Of a stretch of 64,000 nucleotides of DNA, positions 1 to 62,990 are shown piece by piece. Source of the DNA: Torpedo marmorata (taxonomy: Eukaryota); contig OZ360246.1 in the NCBI GenBank assembly GCA_977017645.1, positions 23,932,001 to 23,996,000 of the forward strand, read 5' to 3'. Positions within the stretch are counted from its first letter, which is position 1. Every line of letters starts with the position of its first letter. Both the position numbers and the translations under genes were made by a program. The notes under the pieces are model-generated. The model did not search any database and had not been told where the DNA came from. It saw only the letters and a program-made list of their open reading frames with translations.

Positions 1-574
1 ATTTTGATCTTGGGACATATTTTTTAGCATATTCTATTAGTTGTCCAGAAAACGGAGAAGCTTGCTGAGAGAGCATTAATAGAGTATTGGACAAAGCTGA
101 TAGAATAGCATCCCTTTTCTGAAGGACATTCATTTTTGTTTATGGCAGCCTGACAGCTTCCATGATTATTTCCATAAATTAACAAAGAGAAGAACTAAAA
201 TGGAGAGGGATGAGATGTGGGAATCAGCACTGACCTGTCCTCCTGACCGCAAACGCTGAAACCAGTAACCCAATCTCAGTGAGAGCTCTCAGCACCAACT
301 AACAACCAAAGCCAAGGCCAAGTTGAACCTTATGACGAAGGGCCCAGGTCCGAAACGTTGATTATCCTTTACTTCCAGTGGATGCTGAGTGTCCTTCTGT
401 ATGGCACTACAATCACAGCGTCTGCAGACTTTCCTGTTTAACTCCATGTGCTTCCAAAGCATTTTGACTACTGCTTTGCTGACTCAGTTGATGTAACTTC
501 CATTAAACTACTTGGTGCAGTCATGATCAAACTTGGCCTGGGGTTGTCTGTGACTGAGTTGTGGGGGAAGTGAC

Positions 575-8754: not shown

Positions 8755-8928
8755 ACCTCTAAACATGGACACCATGCGGGAGGCAGCCCGGATGCTGCTG
8801 GGCACACACGACTTCAGCACATTCCGCTCCTTAAACTCCGAGACTCCCTTCAAGTCACCGCTGAAGACACTGCTCCAGGCCGACCTCACTCCAGGCCTTA
8901 GCATCACCACGCAGCAGGACCACCACAG
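8755..8928 (+). CDS. PUSL1: PUSL1 internal exon (human exon 5 equivalent)
   Basis: aaacag| to |gtgaga; 174 nt, phase 2/2. PLNMDTMREAARMLLGTHDFSTFRSLNSETPFKSPLKTL contains the TruA GTHDFS.F motif. Confidence 0.95.
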
Positions 8929-9061
8929 GTGAGAAGACTGCCCGCTTGCTCATCCGCACCCCCGCCTCCCTCAATCTGGCGGGGGAGGGGACGTGGAAGG
9001 TGTGACTGTCATGAGATGTCAAAGTGTGGATGAAAGTTTTAAACTGATCTCTGGTGGGAGG

Positions 9062-9470
9062 GCAGCTTCTTCCCCTCTGCCATCAGATTCCTGAATGATC
9101 AATGAACCAAAGACACTCCCTTACAGCACCAATAGCCTGAATACGACTGGGATTGTCTGATCTCGGAAGCTAAGCAGGCACAGGACTGGTCAGTACTTGG
9201 AGGGGAGACCGCCTAGGAACACCAGGTGCTGTAGGTTTCTCAAAGTAGCGACTCTCTGTCTGCCTTACGGTAGACAAAAATTAAAGAATTTCATGTATGT
9301 TACATTCTAAATGTAGTATTACGTGACAATAATGGAACCTTTAACTTTCACTTTTTGTGCACTATTTTTATTTATTTTCGTAAGGTGATTTATATGAATG
9401 CTTGCTTTGTGATGCTGCCGTAAAGCAATGAATTTCGTGACTTGTTCATGACAATAAATTCTGATTCTGA
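9062..9470 (+). mobile_element. Rex1-type 3' fragment interrupted by the 5S-SINE
   Basis: Sequence on either side of 9120-9345 joins to the same tail as the copies at 1300-1480 and 26263-26450. Confidence 0.8.
9120..9345 (+). mobile_element. 5S rRNA-derived SINE (SINE3-like) with LINE-type tail
   Basis: About 9120-9238 aligns to full-length 5S rRNA (GTCTGATCTCGGAAGCTAAGCAGG...AGTACTTGGAGGGGAGACCGCCT...GGTGCTGTAGG). It is followed by a tail with hairpin tgtctgcc-ttac-ggtagaca and gtgacaataa. Confidence 0.8.
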
Positions 9471-12120: not shown

Positions 12121-13864
12121 TTAATCCATGTTCTTATTAATTATAATAAGAAAATTGTAATTAATTTGCAACAATAAATTAATAAACCTCTCCAGTTGAG
12201 CTCAGAATGAATGTAATTTTTTCTGATTTAATTTGTTTCTGTTGCCTTCATAAATCTTTTTATCCATTGCCTCAAACAAAGAGCTTACGAATGTTGTGAT
12301 TAAGTATCTTTCTGTGGCAGAACTGAAATAAATAATTCACTGGCTGGCATTTCCAGGTCACTGGGCTGAAATGTAACTAAATATATCAAGTTGTAAATTC
12401 ATTCAAAGAACATTTTGCGGTCTTTTCATTTCATAGCTGCGACCTTCCCCACAGCACGTGTCCAAAGTGTAACTGAAATCCCAACTACGAAACCCATTGC
12501 TAAAATAATTCATTCAGTACATTTAGCTGAGGGAACAACTCATCCAATTCACTGCAATTTGCTTCACATCCTGCTCACCAGTCACCCTGTGCTCCCTGAC
12601 CTCCACTGGTCTCTTGTTCCAAAGTATTTCATTCATAATGCCCCGCCGTGAGTTTACATCTTGTCATAATCTCACTCCTCCTTATCTCCTCCTCCAGCCA
12701 TACACTCCTCCACCACCTTGCTAAATGTCTCTGACCTCTTGTATCCACTGCTATATATTGCCTTTGGTACCCATTTTATCCAGCTCTCTTCTTCCACCCC
12801 TCTCCTCTATACCTTGAGGAAGGGCTCAGGCCCGAAGCGTCAGTAATATATCTTTACCTCCTCTGGACGTTGCGAGACCGGCTGAGTTCCTCCAGCATTT
12901 CTGTGTTTTTACCTCTCATATGATTGTCAGCTACCTAGAAATTAACTCCCATTGAAAGCTTTAAATGTAATATTGGAAAAGGTCTCTGTAATTCATTTCT
13001 CTTCAGTGAATGCATTGCTGTGGTTGTCAACGTGAACCTAATGGGCTTCTCTCCCTGCCTGTAATGGTAAACCTGGGCCCACTGCTTTTGTACAATCTCG
13101 TCAATAATCCTTTCAGAAAAGCAGCTGATGTAAGTGTTTGAGGGTCCCACCTTGCCCCTCATCCAGGAATGAGATGCTATACACTCTGCTCCGCTGGAAA
13201 GGTCAGTGAGATTGTTGGCCTCTGCTTGTTTTCTGCTCTGTGTTCATATAATTGGATTACATTTCCAACCAGGTTGGATTAAAGGATGCCAGTAAAGGAC
13301 ATTTTGATTTTCACAGCAGGACACGACGTCCAAAGAAATGAAGGCAGTGCATTCAGTAAATCTCAATCAGTGTACCAGTGCTGTTAAAATTATTTCCTTT
13401 TGAAATTACTGTGCTGGTACAATTGTCCTTGAATTCCATTAGACAAAGTATTAAATTATTACAAGTGCATTTTACAGGCTTCAGTTAATACAAATTAACC
13501 ATGCATTGATTTTCCTGAAGTGATTAATCGTACTCATGTACATAATTGCCTATTTTTCAAAAGCATATGAAATAAATTCCACCGTGACATTTTTATTTTT
13601 GCCGTCGCACTGATCTTTAGTGCGATTGTGAGCATTAAGATGGAACACAAAAGGACATTAAAGAGCACTGCCAGCAGCTGCTTCCATCAGTGAGCTCAGC
13701 GTTGCTAGGCAACTGGGGAAAGTGTGTCTGCAGTGGTAATGGTACCTGGCAGCCAGTGTTTTAGGGTAACCATGCCTGTTATATCTTTAGGCAGAAGTTA
13801 AGCAATCCATTATCTGTCCACTACTGTGTAGAAAACTTGAGACCAAAGCAGGAATAAACAGTCA

Positions 13865-14110: not shown

Positions 14111-16126
14111 TTACATTGTTAAAAAAGGTCTAAATGCATCAAGATTTAGGAGAGAAATGTGAAAGGTATGTTCCTCTTAAATGGACAGTGCTCCCCAACA
14201 CTAATTAGATTAAGTTGAAAGGAGACTGCTTTATCCTGTTACATGACAAGTTCATTTCAATCAGAAGCCTTGAAAGTGTAGGTTTGTGCTTGGGGCAGGA
14301 GATCTATGGAAGGCTCCAAGGGTTTTAATTATGGGACAAATGAAGGAGGCTGTTCAGCCTATCCAAGCTCATCCATCCGGAATGAAATGCATTGCTGTGG
14401 CCCACTGTTGTGGCTGCTCCAAGCCATGTGCTTCAGGATGTTTTTGTCGTTGGCTCGTGGCTCCTCTTGTCCTCCAGAGTGGCTTCACTTACCCCAGTAA
14501 TCTCGGGAGTGCAAACTGTTATAGACTCGGCACGGAAAGAGGCCCTTCAACGCAGCTTGTCCATGCTGAACGTTGTCCACCTAAGCTCGTTCCATTTGCC
14601 TGTGTCTGGCCCACATCCCTCTAACCCTTTCCCAACCATGTCCCTGTCCAAATGTCCTTCAAAAATCACAATTGCACCCACCTCCACCACTTCCTCTGGC
14701 AACTCATTCCACATACCCACCACCCTGTGCGAAAAAGGTTCCTCTCAGGTCCAATCTTTCTCCTCTCACTTTAAACCCTCTAGTGTTAGACTCCGAGGGA
14801 ATCCTGCCACCACTTATCAATGTTTCTCATGATTTTGAATACCTCTGTGAAGTTCCCCTCAGCCTCCTGCGCTCCAAGGTAAAAAGCCCCAGCCGATCCA
14901 GCCTCTCCCTGTAACCCAAACCCAAAATGTAGCCATTTAATGGCATCAGAGGAGCAGTTTTTAAGCTTTCATTCCATTTGAGGAGACAGGTGCCAGGAAA
15001 GTTCCAATAAGGAAAAAAACACAAATGTCTGCAGACGCTGTGATTAAAGTAAAAACACAATGCTGGAGAAACTCAGCAGGTTAAACAGCGTACTTTATAT
15101 AGCAAAGATAAAGATATATAACCAATGTTTCGGACATGAGCCCTTCATCAAGGTATGAAAGGAAAGTTACAATAGTTCAGATTTATTGTCAGAGTACATA
15201 CATGATATCACATACAACCCTGAGATCCTTTTTCCTGTGGGCGAGCCAGAATTTCTACTTATCGGTAGTGCAAAAAAAAAGACCACGCAACGTACACATG
15301 TAAACAAATAAAGAAATGTAAACAAACTGACTGTGCAATATAGAGAGGAAAAAAAAAAGTGCAAAAGTTTCAGATTGAAATTGTCTATCATAATCCCCAA
15401 TATTTTTTCAGGAAGCAAACCTTTTTTTTAAAAAAATTATTGTCCAGCATTATTGACATGATTGGGTTTTTACTAAATTTTCCTCCCCAGTGTTTGAACT
15501 CTGATCCCCATCCTTACCTACTTCTCTTGAAGTGAGATTGCAGTAGGATGCAGCTCCCATTAAAGGTTTGTAACATTGGAAGCAAGTCTGTGATTTTAAT
15601 TCTCCCTTGGTAATACGAATAGATTTCACTTGCAGGTTCCTGCACTCTTTATTTCTCACATGAAGGACATTTGAGGAACAAAACCTTGTTTATGTGGTTT
15701 GGAAGCCACAGCGTACAGCCCCAGGTTTCTGTCTGCCCTCAAAAGGGAAATAGAGATGATGGATTTTTCTCTCAGCTTGTTTTGCTCGGTTGCCAGGCAG
15801 AACTGTATCATTTCATGAGCTGAAATACTCCTACGACTACACACTCCACTGATTTATAAGTAGATTCCCCTTCAAATGTCCTCAAAACACATACAGTATT
15901 TCAGTTACAGCCCACTGAGTTATTTTTTTTCCAGTGGTTTGAGTTGTCCAGAATGGGTTCTCTTTGTCTTTCTCAGAGGTCCAGGTGGGTGGGGTTCGAA
16001 GAGAGATGAGCCCTTGTCATATTTCACGAAACGCTAAAGCCAAGCTTGTGAATGGCCCGATGCCAATGTTTCTGACTTTGGAAAACAGGCCCAAAACTGC
16101 TCACACACTGTGGCTCAGGCTGTGTG

Positions 16127-16770: not shown

Positions 16771-17293
16771 GGTCTGAAAGGGCTCCAGCACACTGTTCCC
16801 CCACACCACCCCACCGCTGGACACTTTGGGGTACGATTCCAAGTCCTCAGCCTGGACACATGGGTCAAGCAGCGTGTGGGGAGAGAGAGGAAATGGTTTT
16901 TCATCGAAACTATGAAAAGCCTCCGCCAGGTGCGCACTCAACCTCTCCCTGTCTCCGCACCATCACAGACCGCACTTTTGGTTCTTTCTCCCCCTTCAAC
17001 CACCCCTCCGCTCCCAACATCACCACGATCATCACCTTTCGCTGCAACTTAAAACTGGTTTGATTTACAACTTCTCCCAGTTTTGGTAAAAGGTCATCAA
17101 TGTGAAAGGTTCATTCTGTTTTGCTCTCTCCGCTGCCTGACCTGCTGATTGTTTTCAGCATTTGGCTCTTTTTTTTTTTAAATCACCAATTACTGAATCT
17201 AGAAATGAACATTAAACATGCTTAACCTACATTTTCTCCAGATTTCCAAAGAATCTTGCTGAATGATTTTCTGTTTGTTTCAATTGACTTTAG

Positions 17294-17348
17294 CCATCTG
17301 GAGTTCTGGGAGCTAACATTCAGGAGCCAGTCTTTCCTCTATAAACAG
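17294..17348 (+). CDS. PUSL1: PUSL1 internal exon (human exon 6 equivalent)
   Basis: tttag| to |gtgagt; 55 nt. (S)HLEFWELTFRSQSFLYKQ; phases fit both neighbouring exons. Confidence 0.93.
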
Positions 17349-17439
17349 GTGAGTGCAGATCATTTGCACAAACGGTTTCCTTCCTATCTCCTGTCTGCAT
17401 GAATCAGTATCTATAGCTGTAGCTTTGGGGATATTGCAG

Positions 17440-17785
17440 CATAGAGGTTAGGTTACGAGGCTAACCGCCACAGTTCTGGACCATTGAACCAGGCACAATG
17501 AGTTCAAATCCCACTATGTAACCTGGGGAATTAAATTCACGTAATGAAATAAATCTGAGAAAAGAAAACGGGTCTCCGTAACGCTAAGAAACCACTAGAT
17601 TCTTGCAGAAAACCATCTGGTTCACAAATGCCATTCAGGGAAGGAAATCTGTCAGTTCGCCATGTGACTGCAGACTCAGCAATGTGGTTGGCTCTTAACG
17701 ACCTCCTCAGTTCTGGGCAGTTAGACATGGACAATAAATGCTAGTATTGCCAGTGACATCTACATTCTGATAACCAATAAATAAG
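17440..17785 (+). mobile_element. Older tRNA-SINE; related copies near 2750-3050, 11200-11310 and 36660-36960
   Basis: gagttcaaatccc B-box and shared tggttcac...cagggaagg.aa.ctg...caataaatgct segments. Confidence 0.55.
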
Positions 17786-20019
17786 CTGTCTTGTTACAAT
17801 AAGCAATATATCAATGATCATTCTTTTAATCCCTCACATATTTTGCAGTTTGTGACTGCAATGGTTTTAGGGCAACAGGCAGAGAAACAAGCACATGTCA
17901 GCAATGTTTGCTGAAGGCCTAGAAGGCTATGTTTAAAACCATGTCTCAGAAACAAAGTGGATTACATTCAATTAGCCACTCTGGAGTGCAGTCAGAGTGA
18001 ACTAACTCAATAGGTGTCTTACAGGCAGAGGGTAGTGCAAACATAATCTCTCGATATTTAATAAGGATGACATGTCGTTAGAATGCACGTCAGGACGTGG
18101 TCATTGAGTATAAAAGCCAAATTTCAAGAGCTGTCGGCATAGATAAGGGAACACTCACAGTCTTTTCCCCAGGGTGGAGGGCACAGGTTTAAGGTGAGAG
18201 GGGAAAGATTTAAAGGGGAGCTGAGGGGCACGATTTTCACACAGAGGGTAGTGGGCGTGAGGAATAAGCTGCCAGAGGATGTGGTAGAGGCGGGGACAAT
18301 TACAACATTCAGACAGGTACGTGGATGGGAAGGCGTTAGAGGGATACGGGCGAAGTACAGGCAACTTGGTGGACATGGACAAGTTGGGCCGAAGAGCCTG
18401 TTCCTTTGCTGCTTTGCTCTGACTGTAATATAATCATTAAATCTCCAATGTTTCCTTAATCGGAGCGACTCCTTTTTACCACCATCACCCTCCAACAGCT
18501 GACAGAACTTGTCCTCAATGCTTTTAAAATGTTGTTACTGTCCCTAATTCATGGGACCATTACTCTCTCTCCCAATTCCCTCTGTACAATATGATTTGAA
18601 TTCTCCAGTTTTCCCATGACGAACACATCCTTGTTTCCTATGGATTTTTACTTGCATTTGCAAATCCCACAACACTCCATTGGTTTATTCTACTTCTACT
18701 TGGGTTTATTTTCCTGAATCAACCACGTGCTTTCCCAAAGTCTGATGAAGTCTCTTCTACTTCTAGTTGCTTGTCTTTTCTGTCAGATGCCTCCATGCTT
18801 TCTGTGGTCTGCACCAACGAGGACCCTCTGCTGTACAAAATGTGCTGCAGTCCCACTGCCAGCTCTGATGAATGGCACCCAATTCATTTTCAGCCACTGC
18901 TCGACCATTTACTTTCTCCACGTCAACCACTAAGAAGCTTTTTATTGCAACCTCCAAAAGTTTTCAGCTCTGAAACAACTCTGTGTGGCATCTTGTCAAC
19001 CTGGACACGAGATTGAGAGTATTCATGATGTGCCCTGTTTCAAATTCTCTGCCATCTGTGCTGCTCTTCATTCCAGGAACTGTTCACACCATCTGCCCAG
19101 CCATGGAGAGGTTGCTGCAGTGCCAGCATCTCTGAAAGCGTGGACAGGTCCCTCACAAATGCCTGCCAAAAGATGCAGCCAATTTCTGCATGTTAGGATC
19201 AATGAGGTAAATAACCAGAGGTTAATGTTGATAGGACACAGCGAAAATTCTTTGAAAAGTACCAAGTGCTCTTTTAAGTCCATCCAAAAAACTAATTAAA
19301 ATTGGAATTGTATTGATACTAAATTGGAGCAATTATAGTAATCTAATCTTGGATTCTAACACAGCTATTTGGCCCACAATGTCTGTACAGGCACTCTGAG
19401 TTTCCAAACAGTCCACCCCTCCTACCTTTGGCACTCTCTGAGATTATTAAGATGCATTGTAAATGCAAATCATCCTTCCTACAATGCAGTGAATTTTTAT
19501 TTTGTTTTTCTTGCAGCAGTGATAGGAGGTGGCAACTTTGTACATTTATTCACAAAATAAAGTAGATCTCCAATGAACACTTCATAGAATTTCTCTATTT
19601 AACACACAGGACCCCTTTTGGTTCAATTATCCTTTTACAAAATTAACAATTCTTTCAGTTTGTAGAACTACTAAATATTTCTGAATGTAGCTATTATTTT
19701 TGTTGCCAATTATCGTTGGCCACAGAGCAAGAGATAACTTGAGGGTGAACCATTATCACTGTCCAAAGAATATTTTAAAACAATTAGAAGTCTGATCTCG
19801 ACTGAACCTGCAATGTCTTGCTGACACATAGTGATGTCTGTCCACGGTTGCTTGATATTATCACCGGCAATAAAATGTGGGGGCTGTAAAATTGCAGGAG
19901 AGTGCAGGCATTCTAAGCTTGGCATTGTTAGACATGGCCAGGTGATGTATTAAAACACTGGGAGGGGAACACCTGATGGGGCCAGCAGTGTGAGGCATTA
20001 GGTCACTGAATAGTTTGTT

Positions 20020-20600
20020 GTCTTAGCTGTACAAGACATTGGTGAGGCCAAATTTGGAGTATTGTGTGCAGCTTTGGTCACCTAACTACAGGAAAGATTA
20101 AAGGACTGCAGAGAAAATTTACAAGGATGTTGCCGAGACTTGAAGAGTTGAGTTATAGGGAAAGGCTGAATAGGCTAAGAACTTATTCCTGGAGTGTCGG
20201 AGAATGAGGGGAGATTTGATAGAGGTATTCAAAATTATGAGGGGTGCAGAGAGGGTAAATGCAAGCAGGCTTTTTCCACTGAGGTTGGGTGAGACAAGAA
20301 CAGGAGGACATAGGTTAAGGGTGAAAGGTGAAATGTTTAAGGCGAACATTTGGGGGAACTTCTTCACATAGAGGGTGGTGAGAGTGTGGGAACGAGCTGA
20401 CAGAAGTAGTGGAGGCTATAGGTTTGATTTTGATAGAGAAGATTGGATAGTTACCTGGATGGGAGGGGTATGGAGGGCTATGTTCTGGGTACAGGTCAAT
20501 GGGACGAGGCAAAATAAATAGTTTGGCACAGACTGGATTGGCCGAGGGGCCTGTTTCTGTGCTACAGTGTTGAATGGTTTCCCGTTTCTATGGTTCTATG
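20020..20600 (+). mobile_element. CR1 LINE 3' fragment
   Basis: YKTLVRP.LEYCVQLWSP.YRKD and RMRGDLIEVFKIMRG motifs; tail ending in ttctat-like repeats. Confidence 0.85.
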
Positions 20601-21084
20601 TCAGGAAGGAAAGTTGGTGTTTGGTGGTTAGATCTGCCCAGTGAGCTCAGAACAACGGTCCTGGCCTCCTTCCACCATCTCCTCCCTCTCGTCCTGGATA
20701 CTCTGCTGCATCACCCAGATGATAACGTGCATGGGTGTTTCTATGTGGGAACGCTCGGGGGTCAAGAGCAGATTACACACAGGACTCCTGGCCCCTTTTC
20801 CTGATCCTAACCAAGGGTGAAAGCCATTGCAGGAACTCTCCAAACAGAGCACTAGCCAAAGCCAGGGTCATTTGGCAGTGAGGCTCCCTGCAGCAGTTCA
20901 CTTACTAATCCATCCATTGAGAGGATTGTTGTTTTATTTTTAATTAATTTTTTGTTATTTTAACCTCTTCGATTCAGATTTCAGATTTATTGTCAGAGTA
21001 CATACATGACATTACATACAACCCTGAGATTCCTTTTTCCTGCGGGCGCGGCAGAATTAGTGTTAATGCTGTTCAGCAGTGTTT

Positions 21085-21325
21085 CCTAATCCGTGAAAGA
21101 TGTGTTCAGTGTGGTGCTGAGGGAGTGCCACAGTGTCAGAGATGTCCCATCTATTAGAGGACACTTTAACCTGTTGTCCTGTGCCCAGGTGGATGTTGAA
21201 GGTTCTCGGCGAAGAGCAGAATTATCTCTGAACTCCTGACCACTGTTTATCACATGCACAGCATCACTAAAATGTGTTCCCTGCTCATTATCATGCAGCT
21301 TTTCTTGGGAGCTTGCTCTGTACCC
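21085..21325 (+). mobile_element. Ancient Deu-domain-like SINE remnant
   Basis: gctgagggagtgc...gaagagcag...ttatc...gggagcttgct resembles the Deu-SINE core from recall; related pieces near 1610-1700 and 11480-11570. Confidence 0.45.
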
Positions 21326-21969
21326 ATCAGTTGTCAGCTTTGTGCTCTCAAGTCAAGTTTATTGTCATCTGATTGTACAAGTACAACCCGACGAAACAGC
21401 GTTCTCTGGTCCTCGGTGGAAAACACGCAGAGATACAACCAAAGCTTCAAACGTTGGCTGGTTATGAAAGCCGCTGTAAACCAAAATGCTTCTTATTTTT
21501 GTAAAAGATACATCACACCAAGTACCAGCTCACTTCATCATCAGATGGTACTGCCGGAGACTGATTGGCTCTCATATCATGTATATAGCCTGCCAAGGAA
21601 AGTGGAGAAGTGGTTTCAGAGACTCCCCCCCACACCCAAGAGCACAGCTCGGGCCTCAAGCAAAGTGGGGCTTCCCAGATTTACGAGTTGTTGCAAGGGA
21701 AAGAGGTGGCTTGGCTCGAAAGAGGAAGCGAAGCTCGTTAGAGGCCGGGGCAGATGCAGGAATTCTGCTCAAGGTCAGAAGGGGTGGGCTGAGAGGATCA
21801 GCTAGGGTGGAAGGGACGGTGCCGGTGTGAGAACAAGTTTCAGGGTTATAGGGCAAATGGGACTGATGGGATTTCTCTGTTGGGAGCTGGCATGGACTTG
21901 ATGGGCTGAATAGCCCAATCTCTGTCATGCACTCAATCCATTGCTGTCTCTTTTTTACCAAAATATCTA

Positions 21970-22562
21970 CCGTATATTTCGGCGTATAAGACGACCTTCA
22001 GATACGACGGGTCCCCAATTTCAGCCTGAATGTCATGGTTTTATCATATGTCGGGTGTATATGATAACAATACGTGTGTTGACTGAGCTGGTGTCACGTT
22101 GACTGAGCTGTTGGGTGTGGCCGGAAGGTGGGTGTTATCATGGAGCCTCCAGCAAAACGAAGAAAGTATGAAGCAAATCTTTCAAAAAGTGCGGTATCTC
22201 TAGTGCAATGGATGATTTATTGTGGGACACTGACGACGAAGCAGAAACCGACTCATCAGATTCAGACTGGGACCCGTATGATGACAGTGTAAACAGTGAG
22301 ACTTCGGATGTGCTTGCCGAGTTCTTTGCCTTAGGCGATGATATTGAAGGATTTTAGATGTGTGTTTTTTTTTTACAATAAAAATTTCTTTCTAATAAAA
22401 TTTGTTGTAGGGTGGGGTCTGAGTGGGTTATGGAACCAATCGAGTGGTATTTTGAGTAGAATTTTAAGGTCACGTTTTTGTATCTGGCCTATAAGACGAC
22501 CCCTGTTTTTGGTGTGTTTTTTTGGGTGCTTCAAGGGTCGTCTTATACGCCGAAATATACGG
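21970..22562 (+). mobile_element. Internally deleted pogo-superfamily DNA transposon (POGK/Passer-like)
   Basis: Perfect 27-bp TIRs CCGTATATTTCGGCGTATAAGACGACC, TA TSD; transposase N-terminal (MEPPAKRRKYEA) and C-terminal (SFKKCGISSAMD...EGF-stop) remnants. Confidence 0.88.
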
Positions 22563-25499
22563 TATTTTTTAAAGTAGGTGTAGTGTCCTCCCTGTGCAAT
22601 TGTTCCTTAAATTAAACTTCCCAGGATACAGTGTGTACACAGTTCACATCAGGCAGTGTTCAACTGTCACAATGGTGGTTATGGACAGTGGTTGCTCACT
22701 TCGGTAAATTGAAGGACCCTGTTTTCACTTCACCTGCTTTAGGTTTGACATCCACACCTATTACCACGCGTGTAAAAATTCTCCACTTCATATTTACTAC
22801 ATCTACATCGTATTTACCACAAAGCCAGGATGCTTCAGGGGTTAGGCTGGTGAAAATGGTAGTGACGGTTGTTAAGTGCACTGCCCTTCCTTCCAGATGC
22901 TGTGATGCTGGCTGAAGGTGACTGTGGAAAGTGCTTGGAGGACACAGTGGTGTTTGGCAAAGCGAATTTCACCCATCCGTCAGGGCCCAGGGGACTGGGG
23001 CTTGTGCGGCAGAAGGCCGACAGAGACCCCTGCTGGCTGAACCTGAGAAAGCTCGACTTACGCAACAATTGACGAATATCTTACATTTGATTTTGCTTTT
23101 GGTAAAAAGGGATTGAGCTCATGATAAAGAGCGAGCCATTCAGCCCATTAAGTTCGTGCCAGCTACTACCAGTCCCATTTTTTCTCTCTCCCTATTTTCC
23201 CTGCAACTTACACGCCCATCAACTCCCCTATTCTTTTGCTACTTCCCTGCACTAAAGGATATTTTACAGACCCCAGTTAACACACAAGTGCATCTTTGGG
23301 ATGTGAAAGGAAATTACAGCACACAGAGGTGACCCACGCAGTCGTAGAAGAGTATGCAAACTCCACACAGAGATCAGCATCAAACCTAAATGCTACTCCG
23401 CTGAGCCAGAAAGTCCCCCTGATGTCTGTAAGAGCTCTGGGCTGAATTTGAATGTTACATTACTGCAATTTCTCGAGTTACTCAGGATTATCCTCCTGAC
23501 GAATGCTTTGTCTAAAAAGCTGCGCAAAATGCAAGATGGGTGTTTTGGTGCACTGTAGTCCTCTGCACAGAGAGTGGCATGCTATTTATTATCATGAAAA
23601 ATTAGCTTTATTAATTGAAAATATTTATTCTAAAGAGTCTATGAAAAAGATTGTAAACTAAATATTTATAAATCAAGGAATTACTCCCCTCTCTGCCCCT
23701 CCCAAACAAATGGTGGACTATCACATTTGCAGATAGGTGGGTTTTTAGAGAGTATAAAGTTCCTAAAGGAGGCGGATTACTGACGTTGTAGAGAGAAATT
23801 GGGATAAACCTCAACTGTTTGTCTTTAACAGACTTTGAGCATCCGCAATTCCCCCATTGTTCTCTTAGCTGCACAGTAGTACTTTTGCCTCTGAGTTGGA
23901 AGATTAACCCCATGTGAGGTTAAAATCTAAGATGACACATCAGAGCAGGAAATGCAGCGCTGTCGGAGGTGGGTGGCTCAGTTGTGCAGAGGAGCTTGGA
24001 CCAGTGATGTCATATGTGCTCGATTCTGCTCCAAGGGGTTGGAGAGAGCATTCCTTTTCTCAACTGGTCTAAGATCTCAGACTCAAAGGCTTTGATAAGG
24101 TGTCCCACAGGATGTTTTCAAACAAAACAATTCGCTGGGGAGAAAGAAATTGTTAACATTTCGGGTCGAGACCCTGCATCGTTTAATGCCCCTCAACACA
24201 CGGAGTTCCTCCAGCAGATTGTTTTTTGCTCCAGATTCCAGCTTCTGCAGTCTCTTGTATCACTGTGGTGTTTGAGGTAGGGGATACTTTTCTGGCACAG
24301 ACTGGGGATGGGTTAATGGAGAAAAAAAAGGAATAGGAATATATACTGATCAGTTTTGCTTTGGGAGGTTGTGACTAGGGGAGTGCTACATCGATCAGTG
24401 ATGGGACCCCAGCTGTTGACAATCAGTATCAAGGCTTGAGATTAGGAGCCAAGTATCATATATCTAAACTTGCTGATATTGCAAAGCCATGTGGCAGTGT
24501 GGAAAACTAAGTGAACAGAGAAGGACTACTATGGAACAAATGGGAGATCATCCATTTTAGTAAAAACATTAGAAGTGCAGTTTAGAAGAATGAAAGGAAA
24601 TCTCATTGAATTCTTTTGGGGTTCACAGGATAGATGCAGAGATCGAGAATCTGGGATCAGGGGTTGATCATCCAGGACAGTGATGAGCTTCTGCCTAGAG
24701 GGTAGTCAGTCTTTGGAATGTTCTCCTCATGAGGCTCAATTATGGAGTAGCTTTAAGACAGAGTTGTGCGGTCAAATAGCCACTGTCACCTTTGCTCTTT
24801 CAGGGTATTTTCTGCATCACTCAGAAGGTTACTGAGTTGGTGAGGTGAGGGTAGATGGCTGTAGGGTTAGGCTGTATGAAGTGAGCGGTGTCTGCTAGTG
24901 GACCAGGTCAGAATGGGGGCAGCTTGATGGTTGAGCTAACCTGTATACCAGGGTATATTTACCCGAGCCATCGTTCTGATGAGATTTCGAACAGTACATG
25001 TGTTGAAAGGTCCCGAGGCTCTGTTTGTGGAACTGCAGAGCAATTTCTGCTGGTGTCTCTTGACCAGCATGTCCCCTCAGTTTCCCCGAGACCAGAGGGA
25101 TCAAAGCAGAAAGTATCGTTACTACTCCTTTAAGCTGCGGCAACCCCAGGAGATATCTCAGTGCTAAGATTGCTAATTGATATCTCCAGACAGCGATTAA
25201 AGCTTCTACCTAAATGAAGCACCTCCTCACTCGCTTTGTGTCTCAGAGATGGGTAATGGAAACAGTGAGTCAGAGTTGCCTGGTACCACACACTGCCTTG
25301 TGGTTTTACGGTTCATCATGCTGTCTCCACTGTAATCTGATGGTCTTTGCTCTTGAATCTTAACTATAAAAGCTGAAACTTTGCTGTTGTTCAGTCAGAA
25401 GATAAATATTTCAGAGATGGAATCTGTCATTACCAGTCCCCCACCATAACCTGTGCTCCCTCCCTCCATATACCTATCCAACAGCACATCATCTCAGCA

Positions 25500-25965
25500 G
25501 TAAAACACGAAGGTTTGCAGACACCGTGATTGAAGTAAAAACACAAAGATGGAGAAACTCAGCAGGTCAAACAGTGTACTTTAAATAGCAAAGATAAGGA
25601 TACATAACCAACGTTTCGGGCTTGAGCCCTTCATCAAGGTATTGAGGGATTTGTCAGGAGGATTGTAACTTTAACAAAAAAAAAAAGGATAGAGATTGCT
25701 GGGCCAGGAGCCAATGTAGGTTAACAAGGGAATAGTACAAATTAAGATAAGGGAAGCAAATATAGGTTAAACTTTATGGGGGAATGAAAATAGGATCAAG
25801 TCAGTCACTTGCATGAATATATAAACCCTCAGGTGCCTGCCTACATTTTGCTCATACCTTGATGAAGGGCTCAAGCCCGAAACGTTGGTTATGTATCCTT
25901 ATCTTTGCTATATAACGTACACTGTTTGACCTGCTGAGTTTCTCCAGCATTGAGTTTTTACTTTT
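25500..25965. mobile_element. Penelope-like element termini in inverted arrangement, each with a minimal hammerhead motif
   Basis: Inverted arms (about 25535-25642 and 25854-25962) around a spacer of about 210 bp. Each arm reads TTGATGA-AGGGCTCAAGCCC-GAAACGTT. Confidence 0.75.
25853..25893 (+). ncRNA. Putative minimal type I hammerhead ribozyme
   Basis: Stem I catacc/ggttatg, core UUGAUGA, stem II gggc-tcaa-gccc, GAAA, palindromic stem III AACGUU. Confidence 0.55.
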
Positions 25966-26262
25966 TAATTTTTATCACCATCTCAGTGTTACGTTTAACC
26001 TTGATGCGAGTTTCCGAACAAACTTTCTTGCAGTTACAAAGAAACAACAGCTTCAGTATCCGTACCGTCACCCAACTCAGCCCCTGCTGCTAAGACCTCC
26101 AGCCCTGCCTCCAGGTTGGGTCTGGGATGTTTTGCTGGTCGATCTGCTGCTTTCACTCTCAGTGAACCCGACCGGATGAAAGACTCTGCTGCCCATCCCT
26201 CACCCATTTCACCCAGCACCCTTGAGCCTGCTGACCTGCTCTGTTCCCGACCCTCCAGCACT

Positions 26263-26690
26263 TCAGAATCAGAATTTATTGTCATGAACAGTCACAAAAT
26301 TCGTTGTTTTGCGGCAGCATCACAGTGCAAACATTCATATAAACCACCTTACAAAATAAATAAAAATCATGCACAAAAAGTCAAAGGAAGGCAGTGTCTT
26401 TGGTTCATTGATTATTCAGGAATCTGATGGCAGCGGGAAGAAGCTGTCCTTGTGCCGCTGAGTGCTCGTCTTCAGGCTTCTGTTCCTTTTTCCCCCCGAT
26501 GGTAGCAGAGTGAAGAGGGCATGGCCTGGGTGGTGGGGGTTCTTGAGGATAGAGACTGCTTTCTTAAGTCACCGCCTCTTGTAGATGTCCTCGATGGAGT
26601 GAAGTCTGGTGCCCATGATGTCGCAGGATGAGTTAACAACCCTCTGGAGTTTTTTCTTGTCCTGAGCGTTGGCACCTCCGTACCAGTCAT
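26263..26690 (-). mobile_element. Rex1/Babar-type LINE 3' fragment
   Basis: Reverse complement of the same family, ending catgacaataaattctgattctga. Confidence 0.85.
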
Positions 26691-27795
26691 AAACTCTCAA
26701 ATCTCCACGGCCTTGCTCTTCCATATCTCTGTAACTGCCCCCCCCCGCCCTCCCCGTGTCATCCACGTACCCATTGCCCAGTTTCTTGTACCCTGAACTC
26801 TGGAATTTCAACCCTCAACCTCTCTGCTTCTCTCTCTTTTGGCAGCTTGCCTTTTGGGTTAAAAACTGCCTCCAATGTCTCCTGATGCAGCTCAGGGTTA
26901 CATTTTATTTGACTGTGGCACCCACAAATGACCCCTGGGACAATGAAGACAAGCTATTATTGTTGTATTTACTTTATCTGTATTTGTGCTTGATATTTTC
27001 TCCTTTTGGAGGGACATGGTGATACTGGGGTTGTCTCTGCCAAGCACGGCTGCAGAATTCAGCTGCTTAGTTTGAATGTTAAACCTGTGTCTCTGGGGGA
27101 GGAAGGGGTGCCTCCTGCTTCTGGGCCCAGCAGCATAAATCGCAGCACAACACTTTTAAGGGAAATTACATTGTCTGCCAAAGGAGAAGGGTAAATTTTG
27201 AAACCAGAGTAACATTGCTGCAGTCTTGCAGATTGTTGCTTGACAAATGCAACCACTTTCAATATGAAGCAAAATAATCTGCACCATAGACCCACGTTTT
27301 AACGCCAACTGCCGAGGCCATTCAAGCAGAGCTATGTGGAAGGATTACACTGGACAACAATTTTTTTCAAAAGGTTTGCTTCCTGAAAAAAATAGGGGAT
27401 TATGATAGACAGCTTCTTTCTCTCAGATTTGGATAACAGCTGGAGACAGAAACCCTGTGCATATTTGATCAGATTTGCTGCATCACGTAGGAAGTTGGAG
27501 AAACATTAAATTAACTTTTATTGAATTTAGCATGTTTAATCGCATAACAATGCTGACACATTGTGTTAGTTCAACTGACCTAAAAATGTTTTGCTGATTT
27601 TCGTTTGTACTCAGCATCTGATGCCTCTCGTGTCAGTGTCCAACAATAGTCGGCCAGCACTGATGGATTTCAGTGCCTTGAAACCGCTTTTCCATGGTTG
27701 CAATGTCCTATTGAAACCTTTCACCATGTTCGATACTAACTGCACCAAGATCAGCAGGGAAGAAGTCCAAGCGAGAATGCAGAAAATGAATTTTC

Positions 27796-29754
27796 TTTTT
27801 TTTTAAAAATTAAAATATTTTATTTTCATTTTTAACAAACAATAAAACAAAATACTTCAAAAACAGATATCACATTATATAGTAATACAATAAAAGTAAC
27901 ATATATAATAAAAAAAAACTATTACCCTAAACCTCCCCCCAAAGAAAAAAAAACTAAACAAAACAAGTGGTCGACAATGTTTATATAATTACTAATTTCA
28001 AATATATAAAAGAAAGAAAAACTCAAAGGCTTCCCGGCAACAGGGCTTATCACATGAAGGAACCCAAAACAAATTAATAGCAAATCTTCTTTAATTTATC
28101 CTGACCCAAAATAATCTAAATAAGGTTGCCAAATTTTATAAAAAATAACCTGTTTGTTTTTAATGTTATACGTAATACAGAACCTTTTTTTTTGCTATTT
28201 TCAGTTACGATCATATCTTAGGAATACTTTAGGACCTGATATGGTCCTACCCTCATTGACAGATGCGGAAAAAATATTTCAGGAAGGAAATACGTATAAT
28301 TTTGAGAATATATTTATTGTTACAAGAATTTATTGTTACAAGATCAAGAGCCTAAAGTGGGACATAATAAGTCCAGGATAGGATGGGAATCAGACTTAGG
28401 TATAGTAATTGATGAAGAATTATGGTCAGAATTGTGTCAGAATAGTATGTTAATTACTATAAATGTACGTTATAGATTGGTCTCCCATAATTTTCTTCAT
28501 CAATTATATTTGACTCCACAGAAATTACAAATTTAAACCAGAATTATCAGAGATGTGTTTTAGATGTGGAACAGAGGTTGGTTCTTTTTTACATTCAACA
28601 TGGATGTGCTGTGATCTACCCTTTACGATGAGAGAAGTTAATGAGGTTTTATCGACGTTGAAAAGTGGTAAATCCCCTGGTGATGATGGATTTCCAGTAG
28701 AATTTTATAAGGAATTTAAAGATTTATTAATACCTCCATATATGGAAGTATTGAATCAAATTACGGAAACCCATTTATTACCGAAAACTTTTTTGAATGC
28801 TATTATTACAGTTATACCAAAGAAAGATAGAGATGTATTAAAAACTGAGTCATATAGACCTATTTCTTTACTAAATGTAGATTATAAAATAATGGCAAAA
28901 ATTTTGGCTAATAGAATAGCTAAATATTTACCAAATTTGATACATTCAGATCAAGCTGGCTTTATTAAAAATAGATATTCAAAAGATAATATAGCTAGAT
29001 TATTAAGTTTAATTAATTTACATAAAAAGAAACAGGATTTACCATTGGTGGTAACGCTGGATGCAGAAAAGGCTTTTGATAGATTAGAATGGAATTTTTT
29101 ATTTAAGGTGTTAGAGAAATTTGGTTTTGGGAATATTTTTATAAATTGGATTAAAACTATATATAGAGAACCTACAGCTAAAGTAATTACAAATGGACAA
29201 ATATCGCCAAAATTTCCTTTAACGCGTTCTACGAGGCAGGGGTGTCCCCTATCACCAGCCCTATTTGTTTTGGCAATAGAACCTTTGGCTGAATTGATTA
29301 GGATAGATCCTAATATAGTAGGGATTAAAGTAGGTACGGAAGAACATAAGATTAGTTTGTTTGCAGATGATGTATTAATATATATGACGAAATCTATTAC
29401 ATCACTTCAACAACTAGCTATTATATTAACAGAATATGGTGAAATATCTGGGTATAAAATTAATTCAGATAAAAGTGAAATAATGGCCTTATCTCAAGGT
29501 GATTATACTAGATGTAGAGAGGTTACGGAATTTAAGTGGGCAAAAGAAGGAATTAAATATTCGGGAGTTAAAGTGGATACAAAATTAGAAAATTTATATA
29601 AATTAAATTATGTACCTTTATTTACGAAAATAAAGAAAGATTTGGAAAATTGGAAAGATTTGCCTATAACTTTAATGGGAAGAGTAAATTGTATTAAGAT
29701 GAATATTTTTCCAAGAATTCAATATCTTTTTCAATCAATTCCTTTTGGAATTCC

Positions 29755-29796
<42 letters not shown>

Positions 29797-31618
29797 TTTA
29801 AAGTTTATTATTAGGAAATTTTTATGGAAAGGGAAGTTGGCAAGAGTAAGTATGGATAAGTTAACATGGAATTATGAGATGGGAGGATTGCAACTTCCTA
29901 ATTTTCAATATTATTATAAAGCAGCTCAATTAAAATTTGTTAATGAATTTTTTGATTTAGCTAAAACTTCTGCCTGGGTCAATATAGAATTAAATAATAT
30001 AGGAGAAAATTATAAAGAGAATATTATTTATAAGTGGAATTCTAAATTATTATTAGTAAGAAAGAAAAATTCACCGATTATTAAACATTTGTTGGAAATA
30101 TGGACGCAGGTAGATAAAGAAATAGGTGGGAAAGGGTTAATTTCTTTAAATATGCCATTATATCAAAATCCACTTTTACCATTTACTATGAACAATCAGT
30201 TATTGAAAGTATGGTTTCAAAAAGGAATTAAGAATTTTAAAGATTGTTTTGAGGCTGGAAGATTTGTTACATTTCAAAGATTGAAGGAAAAATTTAATGT
30301 ATTAGATAATACATGGTTAGCTTATTATCAAGTTAAAGCTTTTTTGACTGAGAAATTAGGGGATGATTTGATTGCTCCAAGACAAAATGAGTTAGAATTA
30401 TTAATAATTAAAGCAAATGTTAATAAGTTTATTTCTCAAATGTATAAATTATTTCAGAGAAAAATGCCTAAAGTAGGATTACATAAATCAAGATTTAAAT
30501 GGGAATTAGATTTAAATGTTAATATAGCTGAACATCATTGGAAAGATTTATGTAAATTAAGTATGACTAAAGTTATTAATGTTAGGTATAGATTAGTACA
30601 ATATAATTTTTTCCATCAATTATATTTAACACCAAAAAAATTAAAGAAATTTAATCCGACATTATCGGATTTGTGTTTTAGATGTAAGAGTGAAGTAGGT
30701 TCTTTTGTTCATTCTACATGGTTATGTCCAAAAATTCAAGATTTTTGGTTGAAAGTTAAGAATTTTTTAGACAGAGTTTTTAATGTTATGTTTCCAATGG
30801 AACCTATGTTATTTTTATTTGGAGATATTAGAAAATTTAGTATTAGGATTAGATTGAATATGTATCAGGTAGAATTTTTACGGATTGCTTTAGCTGTTTC
30901 AAAAAAATGTATTGCTATTACTTGGAAATCAGATTTAGATTTAAGTTTAGACAGGTGGCATGCAGAACTCCGTTCGTGTATTCCTCTGGAAAAGATTACT
31001 TATAATTTACGTAATAAGTATCATTCTTTTTTAAAAATTTGGAGCCCATATATGAGAGTTATGGGTTTAAGGATTTGAAATCTCTAGATATCAGGTCTAT
31101 TGGCGAGTTTAACCTCCATGATAAAAATCAGTTTGTAGATGGTTCTCCCCTTACTATTAATCTATCTTTCTTTTTTACTATGTATTTTTTTTTTAAATTA
31201 TTATTCTTTTTTTTTAGAATAGTGGGGATGGGGGGGTTTGGGAAGGGAGGGAGGGTGTGGGGGAGGAAATATATATCACTTGTATTTTGAAAGTTACATA
31301 TTTTGATTTATGTATTTTGTGATTTAAAAATTTAAATAAAATATTTTAAAAAAACATGGATGTGCTGTAAGTTGAGACAATTTTGGCATAATCTCTGTGA
31401 CATCTTATCTAAAGTTATTTGAGTTACTCTAATATTAGATCCAGAGATCTGCCTTTTGGGAAATTTTACTATTAAGGACACCCTAACCAGATATCAAAAT
31501 ATATTTTTGGGAATAGCTTTTTGTGTGGCTTGAAAGTGTTTAATGACTACTTGGAAGTCAGATTCCCCATTGTCTATTGATAGATGGACCTCAGAAATAA
31601 ATAGTTATATTCCATTGG
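27796..31618 (-). mobile_element. Older L1-clade insertion with 5' inversion, bounded by a 15-bp TSD
   Basis: TSD agaaaatgaattttc at 27781-27795 and 31619-31633. Poly(A) and 3' end on minus (27796-28176, ITYNIKNK..FYKIWQPYLDY). The inverted ORF2 segment is on plus (28177-28612 and 31369-31618). Confidence 0.85.
28613..31352 (+). mobile_element. Young 5'-truncated L1-clade element (ORF2 RT and C-terminal Cys domain) nested in the older L1
   Basis: KSPGDDGF, YRPISLLNVDYKI, LDAEKAFD, RQGCPLSP, LFADD and CFRC...HSTWLC motifs; AATAAA plus A-tail; 16-bp TSD aacatggatgtgctgt at 28597-28612 and 31353-31368. Confidence 0.95.
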
Positions 31619-31734
31619 AGAAAATGAATTTTCAATGACATGTTGCACTTCATGGTTTTGTATGCTTGAAGTAGACTTAAAATACGACAGGAAATCACAA
31701 AAATAGGTTATATCTGAAAAACGGTAAGTGATAG

Positions 31735-32591
31735 TGTTATGGACCATGACTGACCATTTGGACTGCGGACGGTCAGCAGGAAGGATGAAGTCTTTTGGAG
31801 TACACACTGGGACCTGGTACTGAAAGAGTTAACTTGCTCAGGACTTGCTGTACTCAGAGAGAGACACCAGAGAGAGACAGGCTGTGGAAAGATACTTTGT
31901 TGCACTTTTGGAAAAGCAGGTGCAAACCTCTGCAAAAAGCATTCAGATTCAGTTGTTGTTTGGAGTTGCAAAGGCTGGAGAACACAGCAAAATCCAGGCT
32001 TCTGCATCCCAGGGGAAAAGGCTGGGAAAATAATAGCACATGGCCTCCTGTATCAGCAAAATCCTGAGTTAAAACAACTTTTGTGAAGAACAGGCGTGAG
32101 ATCAGCGAGACAGGCTGTGAGATACAAGTACACGCCTCAATCTAAAACTGATTTGGCATCACAATCCTCGTGTATCTACCAAAAGGGAAAGTCATCAGAG
32201 AAGAAAAGCAGGCCAAGCATTCTTAAGCTTAAACAGTCATTGTCTCTCTCTCTCCAACGTTCATTAAGAAGTCCTTCGTGCCAGCATACAGAGCTGAATT
32301 TGGACCATGAACATAGAGAGTGAATTTTTGTGGACTGTATTTTTGGGACTGACTTATTTTTATGACTGACCTGGGGGTTTTGGGGAAGGTTTTCTATTTT
32401 TACATGAGGGTTGGGCACAGACTGTAATGGTCTGGGCTTTACATACACACACACTCTTTAGATAAGAATAGTGTTTATAGACTTTTATAGTGGGGTTAAT
32501 TGTTGTGAAATTATATGTTCAATAAATATAAATTTCAATTTTACCCCTTTTGCATTGCGTCTTCTGTCGTTGCTGGTTTGAATTTGTAACA
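31735..32591 (+). mobile_element. Solo LTR (Gypsy-like or ERV)
   Basis: TGTTA...TAACA termini, 4-bp TSD atag on both sides, AATAAA at 32521; 857 bp. Confidence 0.75.
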
Positions 32592-33096
32592 ATAGGAAAA
32601 TTATAAGGCGATTTTCGTGATCAGCAGCCCAAAATCTATAAAATACATCCAAAAGTGTTCAGGAAGCAAAATCTTTGTTGTTCAGAGTTATCATGCAACA
32701 TTTTGTTTTAATTTGGCCGTTATAACTTGCAAAGGTAACTTCAAAATAACCAGGGCAGTGGCCAGAGTTCTTACACTACCCAAGGGGGTAAAGACAATTT
32801 TACTAGTATTCCCAGCAGTAAGTGCGCCATTTAAGCAGAGCAGTTAACTCATCTATGGAGTCCTCAATTTGCAATTTGGGTTCAGTTTTCTTTCCCAATG
32901 GCTGCTTCACAACAGAAGTAAATTTGAGAGCACACTTGCTGTCTGGAAGGACAGGGATAGCGCGATCCCTGGCACTAGGCACAGGAGAAACATCCTCCCA
33001 GTGATACTAAATAGAACTATTAATGCTCCACCAAGGCATGTCCTTCAGATGTGAAGAATTGTGACATAGGCTTTATTTAACATGTCTTTGCTCCAG

Positions 33097-33259
33097 GTGC
33101 GGAGAATGACAGGAGCTCTGGTGGCCGTCGGCCAGGGCAAGCTCATGCCCCGGCACATTGCAGAACTGCTGGAGGTCCGAGATTCCAGGGCCTTTCCAGG
33201 GAATTTTATAGCCCCACCAGACGGCCTGTTTTTGAAGAATGTGGAATATGATGAGAAGG
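33097..33259 (+). CDS. PUSL1: PUSL1 internal exon (human exon 7 equivalent)
   Basis: ctccag| to |gtaaga; 163 nt. VRRMTGALVAVGQG...APPDGLFLKNVEY completes the FLYKQVRRM and AP..GL.L..V.Y TruA motifs. Confidence 0.95.
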
Positions 33260-42853: not shown

Positions 42854-43250
42854 AAATTGTTTACATTGTCCCAATCCCAGCTTGTCCTATGAATAAAATG
42901 GCTGTTTGTTCCTGTCAGAGAGAGCACTTCAGAACTATTTCCTCTGACTATAAAGTCATTTGGGAATTTTGTAAATGCTCAACAATAACTGGAGGTCTTT
43001 CTTTCTTTCTAGAATAATCATTCAGCCAGCCGTTTGCCGACATTTACCCTTTTACCAAAACTGCACTGTGATTCCCCATCACAAACTTAACAACAACTCC
43101 ATTTGTCTCCAGTTATGACAGTGAATCTCTCCCTTTCATTGCATTCATTTTAATGAATCAAAAATGATTTTTTCTTGTTTAAGAAGCATCGTCAGTTCCT
43201 CATGGATAAGTTTCTCTGTTAATGTTTTATCTTTGCTCTTACACCTCCAG

Positions 43251-59115: not shown

Positions 59116-60129
59116 CTAAAAGTATAGGGAGTAAAATCATATAGCTATCATCACAAACAAACTTTACAAACTAAAATGCTTAGTTACCGGTAGCTATTAA
59201 AATAAAGTATCTGTGCCATCAGCTAGTAGACATGCTGTCCCAGCTATCTGGTGCAAGCTCCAACCCTCTGCTGGTACTCCTGTGCCAATGAATCCTCCTA
59301 CGGTTTGGTGTGGAGAAGCTCCTTGATTTTCTGCCCAGCTTTCCCTAGCGCACAAATGGAAAGTCAGCAGCTTCCATCACATCCAAGAGGAGTTGATCAA
59401 AGAGATTGTTGATCTGAGCAGATGTCAACACATGGTGCAGCCTCTGGCAGTCCCCAGTGAAGGCCTGCACTCAGCATACTAGCCAGGGTGCAGCCAGACC
59501 CACATCTTAGCAATGAGCAGCCACACTGGCTACTCCCACCTTTCCAACCCCAGCCTCTTCACGTCGAATCGTGGGGCAAATCACTCCTGGATCCAACAGC
59601 TCTGTCAATAATACCACTCTCTATAGTGATTCTATATGGCACTAATTCCATTACCACTCTCGATCTTGGGAAAACATCCTAACCTCTAAACAAAGTCTAG
59701 TTTTCTGATCATTACTTCAATGCATAGGAAGTAACTGCCACATGTAACATTCTAATAATAACTACATTTCGAAGTACTTCACTGGATATAAAGTACCTTG
59801 GGATGGCCTAAGTCAATGAAGGCTATTTCTTCCTTTTAATTACTTTTCTCTCACCCTTCTGAAGCAAGAATACTTGCTGTTGAATGGTTCCACGGCTGCT
59901 CACTAATGGAGAACAGTGTCAAAAAGCTGCATCACTGGCAACAGTTTCCTCAATCTGGCTTGCTGCACTGCTGCTTCTCAACTCTGACAAACTTGCATGG
60001 GAGTGCAGCAAGTCTTATGGGCTAATAGTGTGTTCAATCTACGGCGACAAATTCCAAAACATCAGAACATACGAGAGGATGGTCCTTAAACTCAAGGACT
60101 ACAAGACCTATCACATTGACCTCATAGTC

Positions 60130-60615
60130 ATGGTCTCATGCACTACCAGACTGAGACCACCCACAAATTGAAGGAACAACATCTCATCTTGTCTGGGCAC
60201 CCTCCAACGGGATGGCATTAACATCGACTTCTCTGACTTTCGTTAAACCTCCCCCCCCCCCCCCCAAGCTTTGTCCTCCTGTCGCCTTTCCCCCAGCTCT
60301 GTCTCTCTCTCTTCCCTTTTCCCTCTGTCTCCTTTCAGAGCCAAAATAAATTCTCACCTTTCCTCTTAGCATATCCAATTAATACCTTTTGGCTGTTTGG
60401 TCTGGACTCCTCCCCCTCCCATTCTTCCCACCTTAATTTCTAGTCTTTAATTAAGATGCTTGCCTGATTTTTGCTTATACCTTGAAAAGGGGTCAGGCCC
60501 AAAACGTTGGTAATATATCTTTATTTCCTATGGACGCTGCGAGACGGCTGAGTTCCTCCAGCATTTCTGTGTGTTTTTACTACAATCTCAGCGTCTGCAG
60601 ATGTTCGTGTTTCAC
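60130..60615 (+). mobile_element. Penelope-like element 3' end (GIY-YIG C-terminal remnant plus terminal repeat)
   Basis: Frameshifted KL-EEQHLI...LGTLQ.DGINIDFS remnant followed by the same terminal repeat with a degenerate hammerhead motif at about 60478-60512. Confidence 0.65.
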
Positions 60616-60619
60616 TATC

Positions 60620-62867: not shown

Positions 62868-62990
62868 CCTTTTGCTCATACCTTGATGAAGGGATCAAGC
62901 CAGAAACGTTGGTTATGTATCTTTATCTTTGTTATATAAAGTACACTGTTTCACCTGCTGAGTTTCTCCAGCTTTGTGTTTCTACTTTAT
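62868..62990 (+). mobile_element. Penelope-like terminal repeat; related copies near 330-445, 2090-2305, 5635-5740, 12810-12915, 15015-15157, 24150-24265, 33530-33727, 38295-38935, 45590-45770 and 62455-62715
   Basis: Shared motif tgatgaaggg...ccgaaacgt...tgacctgctgagtt.ctccagca. Confidence 0.7.

Follow-up and report, generated by a model that had tools for sequence, protein, structure and literature searches.

Minimal hammerhead motifs in a PUSL1 intron of Torpedo marmorata as probable inert passengers of a head-to-head Neptune-type Penelope-like insertion

Two short motifs on opposite strands of a PUSL1 intron in Torpedo marmorata raise the question of whether a self-cleaving RNA sits in a host pre-mRNA, what kind of element brought it there, and whether it acts in that position. 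The window, as the whole stretch of DNA analysed is called here, comprises 64,000 nt (GCA_977017645.1, contig OZ360246.1, forward-strand positions 23,932,001 to 23,996,000), and coordinates are counted from its first letter. The first-pass annotation had interpreted the motifs as minimal type I hammerheads at Penelope-derived termini, attributed them to a high-copy non-autonomous family, and predicted cleavage of PUSL1 pre-mRNA after 25886.

Both motifs read as the annotation had given them, and they lie within a 110-nt inverted pair that is 95% complementary, with a separation of 211 nt. The plus-strand motif (25853-25893) is sense in the PUSL1 intron, with model cleavage after 25886, and the minus-strand motif (25603-25642) is antisense to PUSL1, with model cleavage between 25610 and 25609. 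Signed positions are hereafter numbered relative to core position 3 (25859 on the plus strand, 25637 on the minus strand), with the model cleavage site between +27 and +28. The core bases U4, G5, A6, G8 and A9, G12, A13 and A14, the A15.1-U16.1 pair and H17 are present in both arms and in three subfamily types, and the assignment to minimal type I hammerheads fits the min-HHR consensus (Cervera and De la Pena, 2014; PMC4209133). Position 3 is indeed U opposite G8 in both arms, as the reported C3U change implies. Regarding the stems, the 4-bp stem II stood as described, whereas stem I pairs only with one bulged U, and the palindromic AACGTT stem III had to be corrected to a 4-nt ACGU (15.1-16.1), the 6-nt palindrome taking in core A14 and the cleavage-site base U17, which is C17 in the young subfamily. 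An alternative register (C3 followed by an inserted U) was rejected, given that the young subfamily has U at that place and that 2.1-1.1 covaries in the chosen register.

A descriptor search, which the annotation had proposed as a check, placed the motifs far above chance: with up to 3 mismatches allowed, the 28-nt hammerhead descriptor matched 9 places in the window, and 100 shuffles gave 0.00. An Rfam scan of the window at the gathering score returned no hammerhead; its sole match, a 5S rRNA-like copy in a PUSL1 intron (9119-9237, plus strand; 52.8 bits, above the gathering score), is probably a pseudogene or a SINE head. The five further variants listed near 333, 12812, 15120, 60478 and 62877 are all present, but none has an intact core. 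Four belong to decayed pLTR stubs: 332..439 (plus strand, another subfamily, A at position 3), 12808..12915 (plus strand, G at 15.1), 15016..15158 (minus strand, with a tail, stem III palindrome lost) and 62870..62988 (plus strand, stem II broken at two pairs). The fifth lies in a 5'-truncated Penelope-like element (PLE) at 60129..60619 (plus strand), composed of a GIY-YIG C-terminal remnant (tblastn E 9e-8), a 3' linker, a broken hammerhead and a tail; this variant has a 1-nt deletion, lacks G12 and escaped the 28-nt descriptor search.

The origin of the arms was traced in the 6.2 Gb genome, where many of the 30 best copies follow a decayed frame whose last part encodes a GIY-YIG endonuclease (Pfam E 1.7e-4, just under the cut-off). 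When the endonuclease piece was used as a query, all 150 scored matches, out of 268,071 first-look candidates, were 100% identical, and an intact ORF of 1158-1160 aa was found in 8 of 9 regions chosen for long frames. Full-length elements form 3849-bp tandem units with hammerheads 3849 bp apart, each hammerhead lying ~190 nt past the stop codon and ~176 nt ahead of the start codon of a 1158-aa frame with reverse transcriptase (RT) and GIY-YIG domains (Pfam RVT_1 at E 3e-6, GIY-YIG at E 6e-4, neither quite reaching its cut-off). The endonuclease is preceded in the ORF by a C-X4-C-X2-C linker motif, and a CX2-5CxxC linker between RT and endonuclease marks the Neptune and Nematis clades (Craig, 2021; PMC8557442). 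The layout includes further features of EN+ PLEs, namely full or partial tandems forming pLTRs, inverted 5'-truncated copies and a 34-nt tail. The element thus appears to be an EN+ Penelope-like element of Neptune type, its clade being assigned by a linker motif common to Neptune and Nematis. A PDB sequence search with the ORF gave no match. Ahead of the RT domain, at residues ~170-300 of the ORF, lie a proline-rich stretch and a repeated motif of ~22 residues, and long overlapping open frames of 486 and 280 aa occur in another frame.

The two window arms match the pLTR of this full-length RT and GIY-YIG element, being 83-85% identical to that of the young element, which bears out the Penelope-derived termini. 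They belong to an older sister subfamily with 7,072 exact two-anchor matches (control 0). The high copy number was likewise confirmed by exact genome counts of 117,356 for the U3·G8 motif, compared with 3,013 for C3-G8, 2,518 for U3-A8 and 1,399 for a G5A control.

A Watson-Crick 3-8 pair (C3-G8 or U3-A8) is therefore absent from the dominant form, and the youngest intact elements likewise carry U3·G8. In hammerheads, U3·G8 carries a rate penalty, and such variants may already be described in work by Lunse from 2017. The 3-8 pair has been shown to matter for the ribozyme (Frangieh, 2024; PMC11167929). A compensating U3-A8 lineage was considered and rejected, since its count is comparable in order of magnitude to that of the G5A control, and roughly one in four of 100 listed matches stands in a CpG context.

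The three subfamilies differ only at positions 7 and 17, by G·U at 10.1-11.1 and by C-G, U·G or U-A at 2.1-1.1, all of them tolerated positions. G12 and the CG palindrome are kept in all three, inserted copies having lost the CpG in 40 of 112 cells, and the ACGU palindrome (15.1-16.1) occurs in both arms and in all master-like haplotypes. Among 8 hand-picked sequences, four of which were chosen by a core-demanding pattern, stem II was 100% and stem I 65% paired; 4 pairs were changed on both sides in this set, a value reached in 29 of 500 shuffles, so that covariation in the stems is suggestive only. When 30 inserted copies were picked by their flanks alone, the core was intact in 7, with G12 changed in 7/28, G5 in 4/28 and G8 in 4/28. 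Non-CpG core bases were mutated in 15/252 cases, compared with 33/308 at other positions (p 0.049) and 145/1512 downstream (p 0.075), both comparisons being confounded by base composition. Inserted copies thus decay largely neutrally, and the core mutation counts do not show pure neutrality. Since the subfamilies vary at tolerated positions while inserted copies lose the core, constraint on the hammerhead fold is likely in the master elements and would be mostly absent after insertion.

Copies across the genome finish at two fixed sites, about +105 and +140. The 3' ends fall at +105 to +119 in 7 and at +137 to +146 in 22 of 29 sister-subfamily copies, and at +101 to +110 in 19 and +140 to +146 in 20 of 50 young copies, 8 of which continue in tandem. 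The 5' ends are spread continuously between +29 and -1454, reaching into the ORF. Upstream reach was at least 292 nt, into the endonuclease-coding region, in 15 of 30 anchor-selected sister-subfamily copies, and at least 450 nt in 7 of 29 downstream-selected copies; pLTR-only stubs starting at -34 or later accounted for 17/29, and 12/29 stubs have 5' ends piled up ahead of the core, from -10 to +7. Starts at +26 to +29 were seen in 3/29 stubs, two of them at inverted junctions with stem I microhomology.

A pile-up of copy ends at the cleavage site itself was examined and rejected. The 5' end test drew on 90 matches, of which 63 were left out because they part early from the reference ORF, being short fragments or members of sister subfamilies; one of these starts at +29 and one at +93. 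The other 27, the youngest copies extending past the ORF start, comprise 24 that read through the hammerhead and begin upstream of it, and one each beginning at +27, +56 and +124. An intact full-length copy (G000:C1:242176100-242179900), 1 of 27 comparable ones, starts at +27, no more than a base from the modelled cleavage site. Such read-through is compatible with cleavage, because re-ligated circles would also read through.

These ends can be recognised in the insertion under study. Its long pLTR arm (25499..25642, minus strand) runs from -5 to +138, includes the 34-nt PLE tail (25499-25532, minus strand) and is 82.6% identical over 144 nt to the pLTR of the full-length element. A non-PLE spacer of 161 nt follows (25643..25803), 93% identical to one other place in the genome, and then a 23-nt filler (25805..25827, plus strand) from another dispersed repeat, the 21-nt core of which occurs 4,308 times. 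The short pLTR arm (25829..25963, plus strand) spans -30 to about +104, has no tail and is 84.7% identical over 124 nt to the same pLTR. An 11-nt TSD-like repeat flanks the whole (25487..25497 and 25976..25986, plus strand), its weak point being one mismatch between the copies and the 12-nt offset of the right copy from the short arm. A 21-nt match between 25805 and 4352 was considered as local templating and rejected, this sequence belonging to the 4,308-copy repeat. A ribozyme-less pLTR stub (+50 to +145) was also noted at 4226-4320 (plus strand), inside a copy of the repeat that supplied the filler.

A genome search with the spacer gave 2 matches from 2 candidates, the window and a sibling stub, with no third copy. 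The sibling (G000:C60:23520007-23520271) lies on the same contig, 437 kb away, has the same spacer-pLTR junction as the minus arm, and is short, ending at the first RT start site. Its surroundings contain LINE RT remnants, and no TSD was apparent by eye. A minority variant at +39 (19/83 sites) is common to both window arms and missing from the sibling.

On account of the long and short arms, the outer 11-nt repeat and the shared +39 variant, we infer that the window arms represent one insertion event. A long arm was joined to a short one in 11/12 and 3/6 of the inverted pairs of two samples, the latter anchor-selected. A search for an empty site in four sequencing runs of related organisms found no contig across the locus. 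The two arms might instead be independent stubs that landed 186 nt apart around native host DNA, the sibling being a later copy of the minus arm with its upstream flank. A spacer without a third copy would fit this, as would a sibling that ends at the first RT start site, where a copy made from an antisense transcript would end. The TSD-like repeat is nevertheless found only on the outer flanks, the arms follow the long/short pattern and share the +39 variant that the sibling lacks, and a 23-nt scrap of another repeat occupies the inner junction, so two separate stubs are an unlikely source, and a single head-to-head insertion is retained.

The supposed non-autonomous family did not hold up, as intact autonomous elements carry the same motif and many copies run into the ORF. 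Because 15 of 30 copies reach the endonuclease region, 60129-60619 retains endonuclease remnants and intact parents exist, the family is not non-autonomous, and the upstream reach of the sister-subfamily copies identifies them as 3' ends of 5'-truncated autonomous elements. A separate ribozyme-tipped element (retrozyme- or MITE-like) that spreads as a unit would readily explain why many stubs consist of the pLTR only (17/29 starting at -34 or later) and why the spacer-plus-arm chimera is found twice with the same junction. Animal retrozymes have been described as PLE derivatives (bioRxiv 10.64898/2026.07.22.740005), and one tandem array of young pLTRs exists elsewhere. Such a unit should, however, have fixed 5' ends instead of ends spread without a break between +29 and -1454, well inside the ORF, and the two-arm cassette with the 161-nt spacer occurs once in the genome, head to head and not as a head-to-tail tandem. 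With intact autonomous parents also present, a separately spreading unit is improbable, and truncated autonomous elements remain the favoured source. The array (G000:C5:20310000-20315500) is built of 363-bp units comprising the young pLTR, the hammerhead and the ORF start; its two strands bear 4 and 7 hammerheads in a head-to-head arrangement, and as a retrozyme-like tandem it could allow dimers to form in cis.

As to the host gene, tblastn placed plus-strand PUSL1 exons upstream of the window and at ~4966-5124, 8753-8929, 17292-17351 and 33094-33258, the last coding exon starting from 35261. The best protein matches of the exon at 33094-33258, which is PUSL1, come from rays, at 95%. The insertion, and with it the sense motif 25853-25893, sits as claimed within a plus-strand PUSL1 intron (17352..33093; flanking exons at about 17292-17351 and 33094-33258). 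Of the other sense copies in the window, those at 333 and 12812 are inside the gene but have broken cores, and those at 60478 and 62877 lie past the last coding exon; PUSL1 within the window holds no second intact sense hammerhead. The same intron contains long LINE RT-like frames of 425 and 428 aa (28514-31078, plus strand). Elsewhere in the window, an intronless rhodopsin-family GPCR frame (7tm_1, E 4e-51) was observed downstream of PUSL1 (43210-44286, plus strand), as were long-range inverted repeats of 78-139 nt, 81-87% complementary, linking 6724-7198 with 46298-46429 and 48288-48762.

Whether the sense copy could cleave was assessed with folding models, which leave out proteins and splicing kinetics. 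The antisense arm precedes the sense arm in the PUSL1 transcript, and the two-arm fold has a z of -19.6. Within it, the sense motif is predicted to pair to the antisense arm with a mean of 0.96, its stem II probability falling from 0.98 alone to 0.00 in context. In energies (nearest-neighbour only), the active dimer reached -18.3 kcal/mol, whereas two monomers scored -20.4 and a stem II-swapped dimer -27.8, and the active dimer is thus not favoured. Owing to the predicted antisense masking and the lack of a second intact sense copy, the cleavage after 25886 that the first-pass annotation proposed is unlikely, with the sense copy predicted to be 96% paired to the antisense arm and the other sense cores broken. 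That the sense hammerhead cuts PUSL1 pre-mRNA there as a dimer and affects the host gene would be in line with its intronic sense position, with a plus arm that keeps all core bases but C3, and with the stems I and II that this arm is predicted to form alone. The upstream masking arm, the missing dimer partner and the unfavourable dimer energies all speak against it, and known minimal PLE hammerheads are weak even as dimers (PMC4209133) or protein-dependent (PMC11167929). An effect on PUSL1 through such cutting is accordingly rated highly improbable.

Taken together, the motifs are very probably minimal hammerheads in the pLTR of a Neptune-type PLE, delivered to the PUSL1 intron in one head-to-head, 5'-truncated insertion and predicted to be inert passengers there. 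In the mechanism we propose, the element protein would nick both target strands, and reverse transcription primed at two internal start sites would yield one long arm with the tail and one short arm, both cDNAs stopping near the front of the ribozyme. The 161 nt of unique sequence and the 23-nt repeat scrap would have been captured at the joining of the arms. Once transcribed into PUSL1 pre-mRNA, the two arms would pair over ~110 bp and so conceal the sense ribozyme. With its U3·G8, the master-element hammerhead is probably a slow cutter that depends on protein help, and the RNA that gave rise to most copies had likely not been cut, or had been re-ligated.

For the host gene the insertion is probably immaterial, being one of very many retrotransposon stubs with a ribozyme predicted to be masked. 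Its value lies in the parent family, whose intact young wobble-core elements offer a testable case for the role of the minimal hammerhead in the Penelope cycle. A tentative and rather doubtful extension is that an amplifying vertebrate PLE lineage has fixed U3·G8 in over 117,000 copies and kept the rest of the fold, neither a reversion nor a U3-A8 rescue having been amplified; at the point where many cDNAs stop, the motif might then serve as a structural signal bound by protein, or as a cutter that is deliberately slow and gated by protein. If this were true, the intact and near-identical young ORF would provide a ready natural test of whether PLEs must cut their own RNA, and the shared spacer would further imply that templates close by on the same chromosome are captured during PLE reverse transcription.

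Among known systems, the closest motifs are the min-HHRs of metazoan PLEs (Cervera and De la Pena, 2014; PMC4209133). The window family shares with that consensus the U-rich lead-in, the short stem I, the extra base after A9, G10.1-C11.1 and a palindromic 15.2-16.2 without a stem III loop, together with mainly single dispersed copies and some close opposite-strand pairs. It differs in the dominance of U3·G8 (117,356 vs 3,013 C3-G8), in a copy count far above the 4,000-9,000 given there and in a stem II of just 4 bp. The wobble core is not new in itself, the U3·G8 form (UUGAAGAA) being printed once, for a PLE-linked motif of the acorn worm Saccoglossus, in the Fig. S3 of that study (PMC4209133). 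The portion of its alignment compared here contains no cartilaginous fish, and a literature search of limited reach found nothing on Penelope hammerhead ribozymes in elasmobranch genomes. Animal non-LTR retrozymes, likewise derived from PLE pLTRs and carrying type I hammerheads, resemble the window family in both respects (bioRxiv 10.64898/2026.07.22.740005), but they are head-to-tail tandem units, whereas the window locus is a head-to-head pair without a direct tandem.

The structure of the insertion finds close counterparts in EN+ PLEs, for which there are reports of inverted-pLTR insertions with a one-sided tail of 30-40 bp and of solo pLTRs that have a TSD and enclose captured, unrelated sequence (Arkhipova, 2013, PMC3846280; Craig, 2021, PMC8557442). 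Head-to-head pLTRs, a tail on one arm, a short TSD and a captured non-coding spacer are common to these cases and the window locus; as a difference, the piece captured here has a sibling, joined at the same junction and lying on the same contig at a distance of 437 kb. The Anolis Poseidon element PAc is the nearest mechanistic reference (Frangieh, 2024; PMC11167929). It belongs to the Poseidon clade, with a C3-G8 core and an ORF start inside the ribozyme, whereas the ORF here starts about 176 nt downstream and the linker carries a Neptune/Nematis-type cysteine motif. In PAc, hammerhead cleavage was dispensable for in vitro insertion and was seen only with protein, the reported data including no RNA ends at the cleavage site, and two internal RT start sites define the tail (PMC11167929). 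The 3' ends of the window family at about +105 and +140 match this arrangement of two internal RT start sites and a tail.
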